Below are positions 978-8,379 of a stretch of 64,000 bases of DNA, piece by piece (within the stretch, counting starts at the first letter, position 1; every line of letters begins with the position of its first letter). The translations under genes and the position numbers were made by a program. Source of the stretch: Escherichia coli (GTDB lineage: Bacteria; Pseudomonadota; Gammaproteobacteria; Enterobacterales; Enterobacteriaceae). The notes beneath the pieces are model-generated. The model was not told where the DNA came from. It saw only the letters and a list, made by a program, of their open reading frames with translations, and made no database searches. The DNA lies in NCBI RefSeq assembly GCF_030013205.1, contig NZ_CP122648.1. One strand, written 5' to 3'.

Positions 978-1005
978 ACTTGGTGCCGAAGGCCGGACTC
1001 GAACC
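978..1005. repeat. 28-bp direct repeat of the leuX 3' end (island att site, distal copy)
   Basis: acttggtgccgaaggccggactcgaacc is identical to 8292-8319, which covers the 3' end of tRNA-Leu. Classic att duplication of a tRNA-integrated element. Confidence 0.85.
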
Positions 1006-1484
1006 TAAGTCTCTATAACCTGCTGTAATCACGTTCCTGTTAGCTGTTAAGAGAGCAATCGTAGGACCTTTTTGTTCTAGGGGCTACATATTAAGTTTGA
1101 TCCGCTGGACGGAATCAAACCGAGTGTTCGTGGCGGCATAAAACATCAACGTGCCATACCTGCCTTTTAATGTTTCTGGAGGTCTGCCGAGTCGGGAGGA
1201 AAGAACATTTGTCAGCTATGTGGACGTTGAATAAACGCCACTGCGTTCGGATTTTGAAACCAGTTAGACCCCGGCAGACCTTGTTCAGAATAACTATTTA
1301 ACTCAATGTTATTTATATGAATTAAGCCATTAAGAGCCAAAGCGAAACGCCACCGTAACGCACCCGCATTTTGCTGTTTTATTCACTCTTATAGAAACAA
1401 AGGGCTGATGAAACATAAGACTATCAGCATCTAATGAATACTGTTCATCCATACAGCATAAAAATTCATAAACTTACACTTGAG

Positions 1485-1949
1485 CTACTTTCTCAGTTTG
1501 TCCCACCGAACCGCTGATACGATACCCCAGTTGCCGCTAGGATTAGGCCTACGCCATTTTGCTGTCTCCATGCTACGAAGATACTCAAGAGCTTCAGCAA
1601 ACGTGCCAAAACGCTTCTGAGCCGCTTTATCACCTACGCCAAACGAACCATCACGGGTGCTCGCCAAACCGGGGTGAAAACAGGAACCATCGGCTGCGTA
1701 TGGAACCAACAGTTCCGAGTCGTTATCTTCAGATGGGCCAGGCGCTAACAACTGCCACGGCTCAACGCTCAGAGCGTTAGCCAGCACCTCAATCGCATCC
1801 AGAGACGCATTAGAGCCACCACGTTCAATTCTGCTCATATAACTACGTGCAAACCCGCACCGATCGGCAAAGGCCTCTTGGCTCAATCCGGTGGCAATGC
1901 GCAGTTCTTTTACCCGCTCGCCAAACTGTATTCTCAGGGATTTTTTCAT
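1485..1949 (-). CDS. XRE-family (Cro/C1-type) HTH transcriptional regulator with ~90-aa C-terminal domain of unknown function
   Basis: HTH_XRE motif IQFGERVKELRIATGLSQEAFADRCGFARSYMSRIERGGSNASLDAIEVLANAL. Start placed at internal MKKSL; the ORF track extends to 2042 but the extension precedes the HTH and looks spurious. Confidence 0.7.
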   Translation of the reverse strand: MKKSLRIQFGERVKELRIATGLSQEAFADRCGFARSYMSRIERGGSNASLDAIEVLANALSVEPWQLLAPGPSEDNDSELLVPYAADGSCFHPGLASTRDGSFGVGDKAAQKRFGTFAEALEYLRSMETAKWRRPNPSGNWGIVSAVRWDKLRK

Positions 1950-2199
1950 GCACTGAATGTGCAATTTTGACCACTGTAAGGCCACGCTCCATATGAGATA
2001 TTTTGAATCCAATCTCACTTCAGCGAGCTTAGTCACTAGCATTCATCGGCTGTATCATGACAATCCTTTTTGATTCAAAACAAACACCAATGGTGACATT
2101 TAAAACCCAACAAGTATGATGATCATCATCGGTTGGGCGTCACCAGCGTTCGCTATCAGGCGCGATGTGGTTTGGAAAGTGAGGGAATCATGACGGGAG

Positions 2200-2684
2200 C
2201 AGACTTTTTATTACCGATTGCAGCGGGAGCCGCGATTAGCTGGGCCAGTTATAGTGTAGTTGCCCATGCTGTATCAAAGCAGCACATCAGCACGCTACGC
2301 GCAACTGTATGGGGTGCTCTGGGCACTCTCTCATTGGTGCTGGGCGTATGCGCCTTTTCTGCTGTAGGTGCTGAGCATCAGACAGCACGAAAAGATATCG
2401 TATGTGCAGATGACAACCCGGAATGCTATGCGAAAACGCACCATAACCCGGTCAGGGAGTGCAAAAAGGTAATGGATGAGAAAGCGAAGTTTCGCCATGT
2501 GTGGCAAGAAAGCGAAGCGCCTGTATTTAATACTTATCTCTGGCACGATGAGAACGCGAAGATTATTCAGGCATTTGGGCAACAAGCTAAGGTAGTTAAC
2601 AGCCTGGGGATGCTAGCTCCGCTTCAATACTTTTGTGTTTTCAACGCAAAAACAGGAGAAGTCATTGCGGCCTCTTTCGAATAA
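2200..2684 (+). CDS. hypothetical membrane protein: two N-terminal TM helices plus Cys-containing soluble domain
   Basis: Start at MTGADF (ATG 2200) preceded by GAGGGAA RBS. Hydrophobic helices LLPIAAGAAISWASYSVVAHAV and VWGALGTLSLVLGVCAFSAVGA. No family recognised. Confidence 0.55.
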
Positions 2685-2744
2685 AAATGTGAGGGAATTC
2701 ACCCTAACATCAAAAATAAACTTATGTAATGACCTCGCATTTAA

Positions 2745-3590
2745 TTATTCATTTAAAGATTCAAGAAATGTCCAGCCTTTATGAGTAACATAATACATTT
2801 GTCCTTTTGCCCCTCTTTCAATCACAAAATCAAAGGATAACAGTTCGTTAAGTGCGCCCTCCCAACGGGCTACCTCTCTAGCCGAACTTCCACCAAAGGA
2901 TTGATTTCCCGCTTGAATATCCGTGCCACCTAAATGCCTTATCACATAAATTGTTCCGCTATCATCGACACATGCTAATTTCAGCAAACTGAGTGCATCG
3001 GCGGACAAATTACTTTCTGGCAAAGATTGACTTGTATTCGCATCAGGAGAATTGTTAATGGTAGATATAAGAGAAGACAAATAAGGGCTACTAGAAATAA
3101 TTATCGAAAGTTGCCTACGGACTTTTTCTTTGAAATCAGATAAGTCATTAAAAGACTCTATCAATCCCTTTTGCATGCACTCAGTTTTGAACAATTTAAG
3201 AGACTCATATTGTTCTCTATCAAGGCTTTCAGGGGCAACAGGCTTTGAGGAAAAGTAAATCATTGCCGGTTTTCCCGCATTCAAATGACGGTGGATTTCT
3301 TCGACTGTTCCGCTGGCCTCGTTCCCAGTCGGTGAGCCTAGACGAGTCCAAAACACACCGATTAATAAATCACAATCTACTAATAATCTTTGATTAATCA
3401 ACTCCTGAGGCCTAACTCCTAATTCGGGTGATGTATGAGTTTCCCATCCAATTGGTGTCAACATTACTTTTGAACGAGCTGAATTTATATCATTCCACTC
3501 ATGGATCATTTCACGAATGACTTGTCTCTCTTCAGCGACATCACCAGGAGAAGCAATCATTACAGGGATAACAGTTGCTGTGTAAGCCAT
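2745..3590 (-). CDS. hypothetical protein with DUF4062-like (TIR/flavodoxin-like) N-terminal domain and unknown C-terminal domain
   Basis: 281-aa ORF; N-terminal motif VIPVMIASPGDVAEERQVIREMI resembles the DUF4062 signature (hydrophobic strand-S-x-D-x-EER) from memory. GGAGAG RBS 7 nt upstream; start is 14 bp downstream of the recombinase stop. Confidence 0.5.
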   Translation of the reverse strand: MAYTATVIPVMIASPGDVAEERQVIREMIHEWNDINSARSKVMLTPIGWETHTSPELGVRPQELINQRLLVDCDLLIGVFWTRLGSPTGNEASGTVEEIHRHLNAGKPAMIYFSSKPVAPESLDREQYESLKLFKTECMQKGLIESFNDLSDFKEKVRRQLSIIISSSPYLSSLISTINNSPDANTSQSLPESNLSADALSLLKLACVDDSGTIYVIRHLGGTDIQAGNQSFGGSSAREVARWEGALNELLSFDFVIERGAKGQMYYVTHKGWTFLESLNE

Positions 3591-3603
3591 AAACTCTCCA
3601 TAT

Positions 3604-4164
3604 TCAATCGGTAATAGCTGCTACAGTCGCTCTTGAAACGCCATATTGACGCGCTAACGCACTGATACTCAAACCGCTATTCTTTTTCTCTAAAATCTCT
3701 CTACGGGCTTCTGACGCGATTTTAGGAGGTCTGCCCAATTTCTTACCTTCGGCTTTTGCTCGTGATAGTCCCGCCTGAGTGCGCTCAATCAGCAGATCAC
3801 GCTCCATCTCCGCAACCGCGGCGAGCATAGATAATAGCAACTTCCCAGCGGCAGAAGTGAGATCTGTGTTACCAAGCTGGTGGACAAGAACCTTGATATT
3901 ACGGTCAGCCAGCGCCCTTACCGTTTGCAAGACGTCAATCGCATCACGCCCCAGACGATCAAGCTTCGCTACCACCAACGTTTCACCATCGCGGATTTTA
4001 TTGAGCATTTCAGAAAATGCTTTACGTTGCATTGCCGGAACCTTCCCGCTAACAACATCGGCAAACCAGTAATCAATTTGCCACCCAGCCTGCCCAAGCT
4101 CCAGCCGTTGGTTCTCAGTATCCTGCTGCGATGTCGAAACACGTCCGTAGCCAAAAGTTGCCAT
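3604..4164 (-). CDS. small serine recombinase (resolvase/DNA invertase family)
   Basis: MATFGYGRVSTSQQD catalytic-Ser N-terminus, ...LDRLGRD..., C-terminal HTH (LSISALARQYGVSRATV). Start at internal Met; the track extension to 4233 precedes the conserved N-terminus. Confidence 0.85.
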   Translation of the reverse strand: MATFGYGRVSTSQQDTENQRLELGQAGWQIDYWFADVVSGKVPAMQRKAFSEMLNKIRDGETLVVAKLDRLGRDAIDVLQTVRALADRNIKVLVHQLGNTDLTSAAGKLLLSMLAAVAEMERDLLIERTQAGLSRAKAEGKKLGRPPKIASEARREILEKKNSGLSISALARQYGVSRATVAAITD

Positions 4165-4355
4165 TGTTATCTCCCCATCTGACCCCTGCCAGAAAACGAG
4201 GCCAACATTAGGATGGCCTGCCAGAAAAGCCAAGGCTATTTTTCCAACAGTGTGAAAGCGTGCGATTGGGAGGTGCCAGAAAACGGTCGTTTGTTGGCGC
4301 TTAAAACGGATAAAGACATGTTAGGCTGAAACCATCACTTCATAAGGACAACCGA

Positions 4356-4823
4356 AATGATTAAAGACGCGATTTTTCACCGTGCGGTCAATATCGCTAC
4401 TCGTTATCACGAGTCTGGGACGAATCAAAACCATATGCCCTTTTCATAGGGCTAAACCCTTCATACGCCGATGCTGAGAAGGATGATCGCACCTTGAGCC
4501 GCTGCATATCGTTTGCCAAAAGCAGGGGCTACGGTGGCGTATACATGGCCAACCTGTTCGCATTCGTTCACACCCAGCGACATGAAATGATGAAAGCGTC
4601 TGATCCCATTGGCAAAGATAACGATAGCCACTTGATACGTCTTGTTAGCGGTGCCGGACTGGTTGTCGCCGCATGGGGAAATGAAGGAAGACACCTCAAA
4701 CGCTCAACGACCGTCCGACAGCTATTGCCAGAGAGCACAATGTGCTTCGTCTTAAACGCTACAGGTGAGCCGAAGCACCCTTTGTATATGAAAAACGACA
4801 GTGTTCTCATACCTTTAGGTTAA
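4356..4823 (+). pseudogene. DUF1643-like gene, apparently frameshifted
   Basis: ATG near 4356 gives MIKDAIFHRAVNIATRYHESGTNQNH... then a stop. A different frame carries the conserved core ...FIGLNPSYADAEKDDRTLSRCISFAKSRGYGGVYMANLFA... through to the stop at 4823. One frame change around 4410-4440 is needed to join them; exact position uncertain by a few nt. Confidence 0.5.
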
Positions 4824-5828
4824 CATCGATAACTGCGTTCAGAATATGAACGCAGCCATATGATATATATGACTTTTCTTTAAAATGATGGTGTGCTAGC
4901 TTCTCTCCTGACACCTACCTCATGCGGTAAACCGGTCCGGGTAGGTGGAGATCACCGCTGTTTAGCGGAAGACGTCAGGATGGGAACTCTGCGTAACGTT
5001 GATTGTGGTAGGTAGGGCGCGCAAGCGTTTGATGCAGCCAAGCAGAGGGTGAAAGTAGCTATCGGCGGATTCTTGAGTAGCTTCTTTTGCGCATAATGCA
5101 TCTTTCAAGAAAGGTCGTCACACCACGAGGAAGACTTGATCTTCATCTGGCAAGGGGAACCGAGCAACCTACAGGCTATCTTCTCAGATGGCCTTATGGT
5201 TGATATGTCCGGCTTCCCCCCCGAGGAAGGGTTTACATCTTAAAGAACAAGTTATGTTTTAACATTTTTAACAATTACACTTCTCTGCTGTTTGGTGTCT
5301 TATGGCGTTGCCGTCAAAAGTAAACCTGCCGTTTTTACCTCTCCTGCGTAACAACCAAATACGAACCAGAAGCTGCTAACGTTCAACGTGTTCGCGGTGT
5401 AAATGCAGCCAGATAAGTTGGGAGCGAAAAAGTGGATGCCCTAGGTTTGGAAGCGCCCCTCTCAGGCATAGCGTCCGAAAATTTCCACGGCGGCAGGCTT
5501 ATCCTTATAGAGCCAAACAGACTCAAAAGTTAAGAAGCGCGGTAAAGCTTAAAGCTCGCCCAGATTTCTCATTGATTGCTCGAACTCCGCTACGCTTGTT
5601 TCAACTGGCTTCGCCAGTCACTCTATGAGAGCGCCGCGAATTCTGCACCATGATTTCGACTACCTTCTTTAAAACACTCGCCAGAGAGCCTTACAGCGCG
5701 TTTGAACCGCATATCGCAGCTTTTGCTTACGGATGACTGTCTGATTAGCAGTAGCTTCATGGCCCAGTCCGGTTTACTTTATTGCTATCAACAAGGGAGC
5801 CGTCCAGAGGCGACGCGGAGATAATGCT

Positions 5829-6161
5829 TTGAGAACCGTCGAGATACTGCAATACACCTTACGCAAAGGCAGCGGTGCCGCTTTTCACGCCATTATGCAG
5901 GAAATCAGTGTTCCCCTACACCAACGCCACGGGATCGATGTTGTTTCGTTTGGTAACTCTCTGCATGACCCGGACTGCTATTACCTGATTCGCGCCTTTG
6001 TCAGCCCTAAAAGCATGACTACGGTTCTCGACGCTTTTTACGCAAGCGATGACTGGCGCAGCGGCCCGCGCGAAGACATCATTGGCAACATAGAGGCCAG
6101 CATTAAAACAGTGATAAATCTACCATCAGAAAGCGTAGAAGGGCTGCGGGTGCAATCGTAG
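5829..6161 (+). CDS. NIPSNAP/dimeric alpha-beta-barrel-like small protein
   Basis: 110 aa, TTG start with GGAG 8 nt upstream. Sequence pattern (EILQYTLRKG...YYLIRAF...DDW) resembles the NIPSNAP family from memory. Confidence 0.5.
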   Translation: MRTVEILQYTLRKGSGAAFHAIMQEISVPLHQRHGIDVVSFGNSLHDPDCYYLIRAFVSPKSMTTVLDAFYASDDWRSGPREDIIGNIEASIKTVINLPSESVEGLRVQS

Positions 6162-6293
6162 GTCATCAAGTTTCACCAAACGTGTTTTGAGCGTCTCCAA
6201 ATTCAGCACTATGAAATCCACCACCCTTAATAAAAAACGCGCCAGGAAGCGTCCCAGCGCATTCAAGCATCACTCAACTGAATAGTAACTGAT

Positions 6294-8246
6294 TCAACCT
6301 GTTTGTTTGCCACGCTTTCTTCGCAACGCATCTCTGACAGCATCCAGCCCGTCAGGAATGTTGAATTCCGCTATATCAGGTAACGAAAAATCAATTTTCT
6401 CCACGACTTCAATCATATGAATTGGTTTGAGGTCTTTGCTATATCGCACTTCCGTTTCAGTTTCGCCGCGCACATGCCCAAGTAGCTGCGCTCGTAATTC
6501 TGAGCTAACGCCCTTCTCCTTGAGCAAAGTCGAAACTGAGTGGCGAAAAGAATGGAAAGATTTGCTTCTGTTCCTCTCGAGTTTCAACCGCCCCGCAAGC
6601 AACGATTCATTGAACCATGCGGAAACTGGCCTACCATAGCCTTTTGTTTTATGTGGTTTAAGCTCCGGGAAGAGACGGGTATACCCTGCATCTTTTAAGG
6701 CGTTCACGTAGTCGATGAAACCGAGACTAATCAGCTTTGAATGGAGCGGAATCTTGCGGCGAGCATTAGCATTTTTGAGTTTCTTTCCGCTTTCATTATC
6801 GCTTTCAAGGTTCAAATAATAGACGCCGTCGTCTGCCAGAACATCACTCAGCAGTAACTGAGCGATTTCATTAACTCGCGCCCCCGTCATCAAGCCCAGC
6901 AAAGGTGCCCAATAGTTAAACGGGCAATATTGATGGAATCGCCCTTGCGCATTGCGTTCAACAGTTCCAGCCTCAAACCACGGTAACGAAAAAATCGCTT
7001 TAATTTCATGCGGTTCAAATATGTCAGTGTGATCCTGATCTCGCTCATCTTTATCATCGGATGGAAAAAAGTTTTCGCATGGCGATTTCAGTAGCTTACC
7101 GTCAGCAACAGCCCACTTCATTGCACCATAAATGCCGTTGATATACTTCCTAACGGATTCCTCAGTCATCAATTTATCGCCGCATTCTGCCGCTTTGGCG
7201 ATTAACTGATCCAGCGTTTTCACTCCATATTTAGCTTTGACTAAATTACGGTTTGCTGGGATCGTGCGCAGTTTGCTCTCATAAGCCCGGAGGAAATCGC
7301 GATCAAAATCTTCCAACTGAATGTCACCCATCGCTTCGATCATAAAGCTGAAATAGTTACGGATATCACTTATAGCCGACTCCGATACCTTGCCCTTGCG
7401 CCGATGCTTTAGATATTCAGAGCATAACCACGACAGATTCTTAGTGTAATACTTTCGATTAACATACTCGTTATCGATAGTAGGGGCAGGAGCGGCAAGA
7501 GGCACGGTAGGATGAACACTAGCGACTGGAGGCGTGGTCTTAGCCAGCCAATCAAGCCTTAGGCTTTCTGCATGGACTTTATTGATCAAAAGCGTATCGG
7601 GTTTAATTACCGGCCAACCGGAGGTGAAAAACCAACCGCCTTTAGCGTCGCTTCCGGCAGTTTTGAACACCGAAGCTTCTGAATAACCGTCGCTAATAAT
7701 GTTACGTAAATGTGCTGGTTGCGCAGTGAGTTGCAGATAGCCTTTAGCAACCCCCTCGATACCCTTCTCTTCGCCATAATTAAGAACGTAACTGCCATCA
7801 AGCGGGTCTAGCTCAGCCTCAGAGAGCGCTGCAACATAAAAGCCAGCCTGCCCCGTCGCCAGCCAGAATACGGGCAGATTACGGTTCATCACCGCCTGTA
7901 TTAATTGCGCAACAGGCAACTCAACTGACTGAGCAAAGTTAGAAAGCGAGATCATACCCTCACCAGCAAGCAGCGGGGCGCAGTCACTTAAAGTTCGATA
8001 ATCCAATTGTTCATACTCTTGTAAGGTCTGATACCAGACCGCCAACAGGAGCGCGGACTTCTGCTTTGCTTCATGAAGATCGTGAGTGCCTGTTGAAGTG
8101 TGAATCTCACACTGTCCTGCGTATCGACGAAAACGTTGGGGAATGCTAATGCGGACAACATAAATGCCGCTGGTTCGACGATAGAGTTTATATCGCTGAG
8201 ACATCGCCTCGTATACCCTTTTGTAAGAGGGGCTACGCGATTTCAA
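6294..8246 (-). CDS. tyrosine-type site-specific integrase (650 aa, unusually long)
   Basis: C-terminal catalytic region HSFRHSVSTLL...LLGH...; lambda-like arm-binding N-terminus (YKLYRRTSGIYVVRISIP); directly adjacent to tRNA-Leu. A ~250-aa central region is of unclear homology. Confidence 0.85.
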   Translation of the reverse strand: MKSRSPSYKRVYEAMSQRYKLYRRTSGIYVVRISIPQRFRRYAGQCEIHTSTGTHDLHEAKQKSALLLAVWYQTLQEYEQLDYRTLSDCAPLLAGEGMISLSNFAQSVELPVAQLIQAVMNRNLPVFWLATGQAGFYVAALSEAELDPLDGSYVLNYGEEKGIEGVAKGYLQLTAQPAHLRNIISDGYSEASVFKTAGSDAKGGWFFTSGWPVIKPDTLLINKVHAESLRLDWLAKTTPPVASVHPTVPLAAPAPTIDNEYVNRKYYTKNLSWLCSEYLKHRRKGKVSESAISDIRNYFSFMIEAMGDIQLEDFDRDFLRAYESKLRTIPANRNLVKAKYGVKTLDQLIAKAAECGDKLMTEESVRKYINGIYGAMKWAVADGKLLKSPCENFFPSDDKDERDQDHTDIFEPHEIKAIFSLPWFEAGTVERNAQGRFHQYCPFNYWAPLLGLMTGARVNEIAQLLLSDVLADDGVYYLNLESDNESGKKLKNANARRKIPLHSKLISLGFIDYVNALKDAGYTRLFPELKPHKTKGYGRPVSAWFNESLLAGRLKLERNRSKSFHSFRHSVSTLLKEKGVSSELRAQLLGHVRGETETEVRYSKDLKPIHMIEVVEKIDFSLPDIAEFNIPDGLDAVRDALRRKRGKQTG

Positions 8247-8294
8247 GCAAAATTATGGATTAAATTGTTTTAAAACAACGACTTAGATAAGACT

Positions 8295-8379
8295 TGGTGC
8301 CGAAGGCCGGACTCGAACCGGCACGTATTTCTACGGTTGATTTTGAATCAACTGCGTCTACCGATTTCGCCACTTCGGC
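8295..8379 (-). tRNA. leuX: tRNA-Leu (CAA), leuX
   Basis: Reverse complement reads GCCGAAGTGGCGAAATCGGTAGACGCAGTTGATTCAAAATCAACCGTAGAAATACGTGCCGGTTCGAGTCCGGCCTTCGGCACCA (85 nt, CAA anticodon, CCA end). Confidence 0.95.

Follow-up and report, generated by a model that had tools for sequence, protein, structure and literature searches.

A NIPSNAP-family protein gene beside the integrase of a leuX island in Escherichia coli

The leuX island and the NIPSNAP gene

The window analysed here, a 64,000-nt stretch of Escherichia coli DNA (contig NZ_CP122648.1), carries a small island at the tRNA gene leuX. As judged by paired 28-nt att repeats, this island spans ~7.3 kb (978-8319), with a GC content of 40-49% vs. 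53-55% in the flanking core. Its genes run in the order HTH regulator, membrane protein, DUF4062, serine recombinase, DUF1643, an ORF-free kilobase, NIPSNAP and integrase, with no recognisable excisionase in the leuX island by domain, annotation or PHROGs comparison. The main features of the island are as follows:

978-1005, unstranded, 28-nt att direct repeat, 100% identical to 8292-8319, distal boundary
1485-2042 (PGAP 1485-1949), minus strand, XRE-type HTH regulator, backbone
2133-2684 (PGAP 2190-2684), plus strand, small membrane protein, backbone, phrog_20749
2745-3590, minus strand, DUF4062 protein, cargo slot 1 (variable), N-terminal domain matching the PADLOC candidate PDC-S60
3604-4233 (PGAP 3604-4164), minus strand, serine recombinase of resolvase/invertase type, backbone
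4357-4823, plus strand, DUF1643 pseudogene with a 1-nt deletion after 4372, cargo slot 2 (variable)
5817-5821, plus strand, Shine-Dalgarno sequence GGAGA (GGAG at 5817-5820), 8 nt 5' of the TTG
5829-6161, plus strand, NIPSNAP-fold protein CDS, 110 aa, TTG start, TAG stop at 6159-6161; PGAP call identical
6294-8246, minus strand, tyrosine integrase, ORF of 650 aa with N-terminal DUF6538, Phage_int_SAM_5 and Phage_integrase domains (636 aa, 6294-8204, with the start chosen by PGAP)
8292-8319, unstranded, 28-nt att direct repeat overlapping the 3' end of leuX, integrase-proximal boundary
8295-8379, minus strand, tRNA-Leu(CAA) leuX, the integration target, abutted by the integrase ORF

The original prediction had described a 110-aa ORF with a TTG start and a GGAG Shine-Dalgarno sequence between an ORF-free segment and the integrase, and all of this was confirmed: the 5' neighbour of the ORF is the stretch 4824-5828, which lacks any ORF of at least 50 aa, and its 3' neighbour is the convergent integrase ORF on the minus strand, across a gap of 132 nt. 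Many E. coli chromosomes match the region at 100% identity. In strain ML35 and others, the PGAP annotation has this very CDS, starting at the same TTG, under the name 'NIPSNAP family protein' (WP_001261095.1); after it come 'site-specific integrase', tRNA-Leu, ahr and yjgR. The supposition that the gene is unannotated did not hold, as RefSeq names it in hundreds of genomes; because it stands in RefSeq under the very name that had been guessed, the finding itself was already known. Taken alone, the gene is therefore of small import, being an annotated protein of a family without known bacterial function. The predicted product is a 12-kDa acidic, soluble protein (pI 5.7, charge -3) with neither a transmembrane segment nor a signal peptide, and acidity is common to the family at large (median pI 5.5, with a pI above 8 in just 3 of 61 members). 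A search upstream of the gene for a sigma-70 promoter consensus yielded no match.

Homologous loci were gathered from one-genome-per-species contigs, contigs encoding exact homologues, other E. coli genomes and metagenomes; the close-relative alignment, used as query, gave 20 loci from the one-genome-per-species contigs. Among 5426 complete E. coli genomes, 706 matched the gene at the DNA level; the strains Nissle 1917 and ATCC 25922 carry copies with 100% identity. At the protein level, a database clustered at 90% identity returned 358 matches, named 'NIPSNAP family protein', from Escherichia, Klebsiella, Enterobacter, Serratia, Cronobacter, Yersinia, Pectobacterium, Edwardsiella, Rahnella and other genera, and 461 clusters at 50% identity matched at E<=1e-3. 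An absence of homologues had been named as grounds for discarding the prediction; with 358 close and 461 cluster-level homologues, this is not the case. Pairwise dN/dS (Nei-Gojobori) of the window gene against 20 homologues ranged from 0.05 to 0.28, and protein length was conserved across genera. Of 23 homologous loci, drawn from many genera, 16 have kept the start region cGGAGA(t/c)aac..TTG; given this retention, the weak start is a conserved feature of the clade and not an accident of annotation. Distant copies start with ATG or GTG. As judged by these substitution patterns and by conservation, 5829-6161 was shown to be a real gene of the translated type, under purifying selection.

Several minor features of the region were also noted. 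In this copy alone, an out-of-frame mini-ORF, ATG-CTT-TGA (5824-5832), overlaps the TTG of the NIPSNAP gene (gatAATGCTTTGAg); it is probably incidental, since the other loci read ...ataacgcTTG at this point and have no ATG. An inverted repeat between the start region (5823-5848) and the inside of the CDS (6012-6037) was judged to be due to chance. The island membrane protein matches phrog_20749 almost end-to-end (E 1.6e-102), indicating that copies of the island backbone have already been catalogued as 'phage' proteins. The deletion in DUF1643 falls in a T-run, with intact copies in O157:H7 and Enterobacter. Beyond the distal att, positions 1-978 of the window are low in GC (41%), a degenerate third att copy (68%) was found at 1094-1121, and the corresponding distal flank in ML35 holds AbiJ-NTD4, IS30 and transposase fragments; these features suggest that a second island once lay in tandem at leuX and has left remnants.

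Family and fold of the protein

By itself, the window protein matched 0 Pfam families, at E<=1 as well as at E<=10, and had no match in NCBIfam. Its relatives did match the NIPSNAP family PF07978: of 24 close ones, 20 gave a hit (E<=10, best 1.3e-5), and of 61 diverse ones, 37 did so (E<=0.01, best 5.9e-11). A profile of the alignment of diverse relatives (A2), searched against the PDB, found 1VQS (E 2.5e-5), 2AP6 (E 3.9e-5) and 5K9F (E 0.028) as well as the Burkholderia NIPSNAP structures 5IXU and 5KAK, and hhalign of A2 vs. Atu4242 gave a probability of 95.9% (E 6e-9). The diverse alignment was needed to detect this relationship: PDB sequence searches with the single sequence or the close family returned xylose-isomerase matches only, which we attribute to chance. 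The proposal of a NIPSNAP-like alpha/beta barrel was thus upheld by the PF07978 matches of relatives, the A2 hit to 1VQS and the nearest structures, and the HHpred/Pfam check that had been proposed for it came out mixed, failing in Pfam for the window protein alone and succeeding in hhalign of A2 with Atu4242.

AlphaFold2 with A2 predicted a ferredoxin-like alpha+beta domain with high confidence (pLDDT 97.1, pTM 0.88), in the order strand-helix-strand-strand-helix-strand. In a Foldseek search with this model, ranks 1-15 were all NIPSNAP crystal structures (TM 0.78-0.85), followed by ABM monooxygenases (TM 0.55-0.70). These data support placing the window protein, at the level of family and predicted fold, in the NIPSNAP branch of the dimeric alpha/beta-barrel superfamily; the assignment rests on the PF07978 matches of its relatives, the A2 profile and the nearest structures, and not on a Pfam match of its own. 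The ABM or cofactor-independent monooxygenases (PF03992: ActVA-Orf6, SnoaB, YgiN, LsrG, IsdG) were a poorer structural match than NIPSNAP proteins, and no ABM catalytic residues were identified in the window protein. Membership in PF03992 was therefore rejected in favor of NIPSNAP, which gave the best match. In addition, there are relatives with two domains in tandem, P0124 (222 aa) and P0126 (245 aa), both of which align to the query twice, as would be expected if the fold functions as a dimeric barrel.

The solved bacterial members of PF07978 are Atu4242 (1VQS/2AP6), Atu5224 (1VQY) and the Burkholderia xenovorans proteins 5IXU, 5K9F and 5KAK. Unlike the PF07978 NIPSNAPs, the window protein is by itself below Pfam detection, has L for R in the E-I-R-x-Y motif and is found on mobile elements. 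In NIPSNAP proteins the first strand carries the motif E-[IL]-R-x-Y, which is also seen in the alignment with Atu4242; the window protein and its Enterobacterales clade keep E5 and Y9 with L7 in place of the arginine, and the consensus of the wider NIPSNAP subfamily retains VEIRxY. By this alignment, the window clade is a divergent edge of the NIPSNAP family. Conserved positions of the window protein include E5, Y9, Y51, R55, F70, Y71 and W76, with G79-P80-R81 specific to the subfamily; the longer W-R-x-G-P-R-E motif (residues 76-82) is likewise found in the subfamily of the window protein and not in Atu4242.

An optional module and its island family

Comparison of all contexts in which the NIPSNAP gene was found delimits a common block of about 5700-6245, which comprises the CDS, a leader of ~125 nt and a short tail. 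The elements around the gene, together with a conserved element further upstream, are:

4860-5270 (~411 nt; core ~4912-5242), plus strand, conserved, putatively structured non-coding element, by conservation and fold z-score
5629-5702, unstranded, 74-nt direct repeat flanking the NIPSNAP module, upstream copy
5703-5828 (~125 nt), plus strand, conserved leader of the NIPSNAP gene, kept in every genomic context, even in loci without the island
6189-6263, unstranded, 74-nt direct repeat, downstream copy, holding the integrase intrinsic terminator
6264-6235, minus strand, hairpin of the integrase intrinsic terminator, with a T-run after it

The two copies of the repeat are 71.6% identical over 74 nt, with an alignment score of 59 vs. 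18.8 +/- 2.8 (max 36) for shuffles. Five islands (L061, L064, L069, L073 and L081), retrieved from metagenomes via a marker other than NIPSNAP, have no NIPSNAP gene and a single copy of the repeat directly beside the integrase; the gene is also absent from a thrW island found via its integrase (L051). The 74-nt bracketing repeat derives from the integrase-terminator region. Judged by these presence/absence comparisons, the gene was shown to be a discrete, optional and self-contained module of ~0.5 kb, placed at the integrase-proximal end of the island. The leader has no unusual RNA structure (fold z-score -0.15) and no Rfam match, and does not resemble a riboswitch or thermosensor.

The module resembles the 'morons' of phages and islands: a small autonomous gene that brings its own leader, it lies beside a terminator and between the copies of a duplication, is carried by some elements and missing from others of otherwise similar make-up, and is not required for the life cycle of the element; unlike morons, it has no identified promoter or terminator of its own. 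In O157:H7 (L002 9455-9832) and in a thrW island (L052 6526-6903), a DUF4160 gene lies between NIPSNAP and the integrase, and O157:H7 likewise has an IS3 element inserted there, which makes the NIPSNAP-integrase junction itself an insertion hotspot. We also considered an invertible promoter upstream of NIPSNAP, flipped by the resolvase between inverted repeats at 4927-4941 and 5763-5777. The left arm resembles a gix half-site; this pair (15 nt, 87%) does not stand out from ~12 chance pairs and lacks the palindromic form of a crossover site, and the idea was dropped.

The island in the window belongs to a modular family with the layout att, HTH regulator (minus), membrane protein (plus), slot 1 (minus), serine recombinase (minus), slot 2 (plus), NIPSNAP (plus), DUF6538 integrase (minus) and a tRNA or other target; its members are the window island (978-8319) and those of L002, L004-L008, L014, L018-L022, L042, L044, L051 and L052. 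Across islands, backbone proteins are 83-98% (HTH), 81-92% (resolvase) and 82-88% (NIPSNAP) identical, and the identity of the DUF6538 integrase to that of the window is 36, 45, 47, 78, 90 or 100%. Targets comprise leuX (window, O157:H7), thrW beside proA (Klebsiella and some E. coli) and a dhaR-adjacent site. The slots hold DUF4062 and DUF1643 in the window, AAA_21+RloB and GrpB in a Klebsiella island, a reverse transcriptase in a Pectobacterium island, and an AAA ATPase with a UvrD helicase in another E. coli island. Counts in complete E. coli genomes are similar in magnitude: 706 for the NIPSNAP gene, 649 for the window integrase lineage and 954 for the HTH block. The NIPSNAP gene marks a coherent family of small 'integrase-only' islands in Enterobacterales, which, by swapping integrases, swap their tRNA targets too, while the anti-phage cargo varies. 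The description of the gene as cargo of unknown role was about right, in that it is a discrete optional module; it is not random cargo, though, as it recurs in one island family with swapped integrases. Co-occurrence with the integrase family, proposed as a further check, was partial, the gene lying beside a DUF6538 integrase in most islands, with some islands lacking NIPSNAP and some NIPSNAP genes lacking an integrase.

Hochhauser et al. (2023, PMC10121019) described, at hotspots of E. coli genomes, 'integrase-only' mobile islands that carry defence systems and whose mobilisation is unclear. The present family matches this category: its islands are small, lie at tRNA genes, have an integrase and a recombinase as their sole mobility genes, and carry defence-like cargo that varies. 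As far as that paper was searched, it mentions neither leuX nor tRNA-Leu nor yjgR.

Two further observations bear on individual islands. The leuX island of L044 has an integrase 100% identical to that of the window, with NIPSNAP just 87% and DUF4062 65% identical, which points to mosaic recombination even among leuX copies. An E. coli leuX island with 99-100% protein identity was found on a contig labelled 'MAG: Collinsella sp.' (L010), and a NIPSNAP/integrase island of enterobacterial type on one labelled 'Martelella alba' (L021); by their sequence, both are probably mis-binned or contaminating enterobacterial contigs.

The 'ORF-free' kilobase upstream of the gene proved to contain a conserved element (4860-5270). 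Island copies from E. coli and Enterobacter share 97-100% identity over the block 4320-5400, which comprises DUF1643 and ~580 nt downstream of it, vs. just 70-90% for the flanking genes, which suggests a recently exchanged cassette; Pluralibacter matches the block from ~4736 to ~5270. A 20-mer from the block retrieved 26 metagenomic copies of the element at 92-100% identity, and all copies of the element lie within this island family, some of them in islands that lack DUF1643 or NIPSNAP. Its fold z-score is -4.4, with an MFE of -154.7 on the plus strand vs. -142.3 on the minus strand. Helix 1 contains 3 compensatory CG-to-UA pairs on the plus strand, together with nine one-sided changes that keep standard pairs on that strand (seven of them via G-U wobble), and most of the core is invariant among copies. 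The element has no Rfam match and is missing from the plasmid and phage collections, and pattern scans of viral contigs gave chance matches only. From its sequence, it is a candidate for a new structured RNA or for a cis-acting DNA site, e.g. an oriT; either one, if true, would bear on how these islands move.

The NIPSNAP gene is also found outside the island. Five loci (L013, L015, L016, L017 and L029) have an intact ORF although an integrase is missing within 10 kb or survives as decayed fragments only, and dN/dS for NIPSNAP in loci without an adjacent integrase is 0.09-0.19. In Raoultella and Enterobacter, the module sits at the edges of variable regions without a DUF6538 integrase, beside Hcp/Rap1a genes or decayed recombinase fragments; in Kosakonia it occurs with no detectable island backbone gene. 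The gene is present on 56 plasmids and in ICE-like elements, and tblastn against 50,697 phage records gave no match. Neighbours are heterogeneous among distant homologues and on plasmids, with no recurrent gene partner. Homologues 60-69% identical are located between paaK and paaE in the phenylacetate operons of Chryseobacterium and Elizabethkingia (L034 10001-10342 and L027 9992-10330, respectively, these two at 60-61% identity to the window protein), both genera being members of the Weeksellaceae; this identity across phyla suggests horizontal transfer, and the link to paa is limited to one lineage.

What the protein may do

We know of no ligand, active site or phenotype for bacterial NIPSNAP proteins, and literature searches for a link of NIPSNAP to integrases, islands or anti-phage function, and for DUF6538 and SpLE5, found nothing relevant. 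The characterised structural neighbours of the predicted fold are all enzymes or ligand binders (SnoaB, ActVA-Orf6, YgiN, LsrG, IsdG/MhuD, mutarotases and cyclases). Based on these neighbours and on the paaK-X-paaE synteny in two genera, we infer that the window protein probably forms a homodimeric barrel which binds or transforms a small metabolite, probably of aromatic or hydrophobic nature. The gene would be kept because it benefits the host cell, as a moron-like accessory standing outside the integration/excision machinery and outside the variable anti-phage cargo. We put the probability of this reading as a whole at roughly 60%.

In most islands the gene keeps its place next to the integrase, and this could still mean that it serves the element in some way. 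It might be a life-cycle factor, e.g. an RDF or another cofactor or regulator of the DUF6538 integrase, which would control excision or integration at tRNA genes; this would fit the direct adjacency to the integrase even at 36-47% integrase identity, an island without a recognisable excisionase, and a weak TTG start as is typical of tightly dosed regulators. However, the protein is acidic (pI 5.7, in a family with 3 of 61 members above pI 8), has neither an HTH domain nor a DNA-binding structural neighbour as would be looked for in an excisionase or RDF, and is encoded convergently with int, not co-transcribed with it. In addition, sister islands with intact-looking integrases do without NIPSNAP, and the gene stays intact under selection in the absence of an integrase, on plasmids and in a metabolic operon. 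The comparison of loci has shown, at the level of sequence, that the gene persists without the integrase, moves with its own leader and is dispensable for islands that otherwise look complete. We thus regard a life-cycle role as highly improbable; recombination machinery can be discarded as a label for the gene, which should be treated as an accessory module prone to gain and loss. The notion of a non-functional ORF, arisen by chance or decaying and carried neutrally with the integrase, could draw on the DUF1643 pseudogene in the same island, the lack of a promoter consensus and the lack of a direct Pfam match for the window protein, but it is effectively refuted by the selection and conservation data, i.e. 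the low dN/dS in all 20 comparisons, the length, start codon and Shine-Dalgarno sequence conserved across genera, the 461 homologous clusters and a fold prediction of very high confidence.

A part in phage defence, whether as an accessory, sensor or regulator of the defence cargo or in anti-defence and self-protection, would be in keeping with the two slots of defence-like cargo (DUF4062/PDC-S60, AAA_21+RloB, reverse transcriptase, AAA ATPase with UvrD), with the location of NIPSNAP at the end of slot 2 in the orientation of the slot 2 cargo, and with the defence-carrying 'integrase-only' islands described in E. coli (PMC10121019). Yet the protein matches 0 families in PADLOC-DB 2.0 and PHROGs v4, is encoded in none of the phage genomes searched and also occurs far from any defence genes; since NIPSNAP stays constant where the cargo changes wholly, it is not specific to any one defence system. 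On balance, we consider a defence role unlikely. A broader scheme would view NIPSNAP as a cassette of a hitherto undescribed modular island system, captured and lost at the 74-nt junction repeats, perhaps via the serine recombinase, with the protein tied to the element, for instance as a metabolite sensor that links host physiology to the island or its defence functions, and with the ~330-nt element 0.6 kb upstream being part of the system; we hold this scheme to be quite improbable.

For the preferred reading of a small-molecule-binding barrel that benefits the host, the placement in paa operons is the first testable lead for this NIPSNAP subfamily, pointing to aromatic or CoA-thioester metabolites. 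This lead, together with the module and its flanking repeat and the integrase-swapping island family, is not described in the literature searched.
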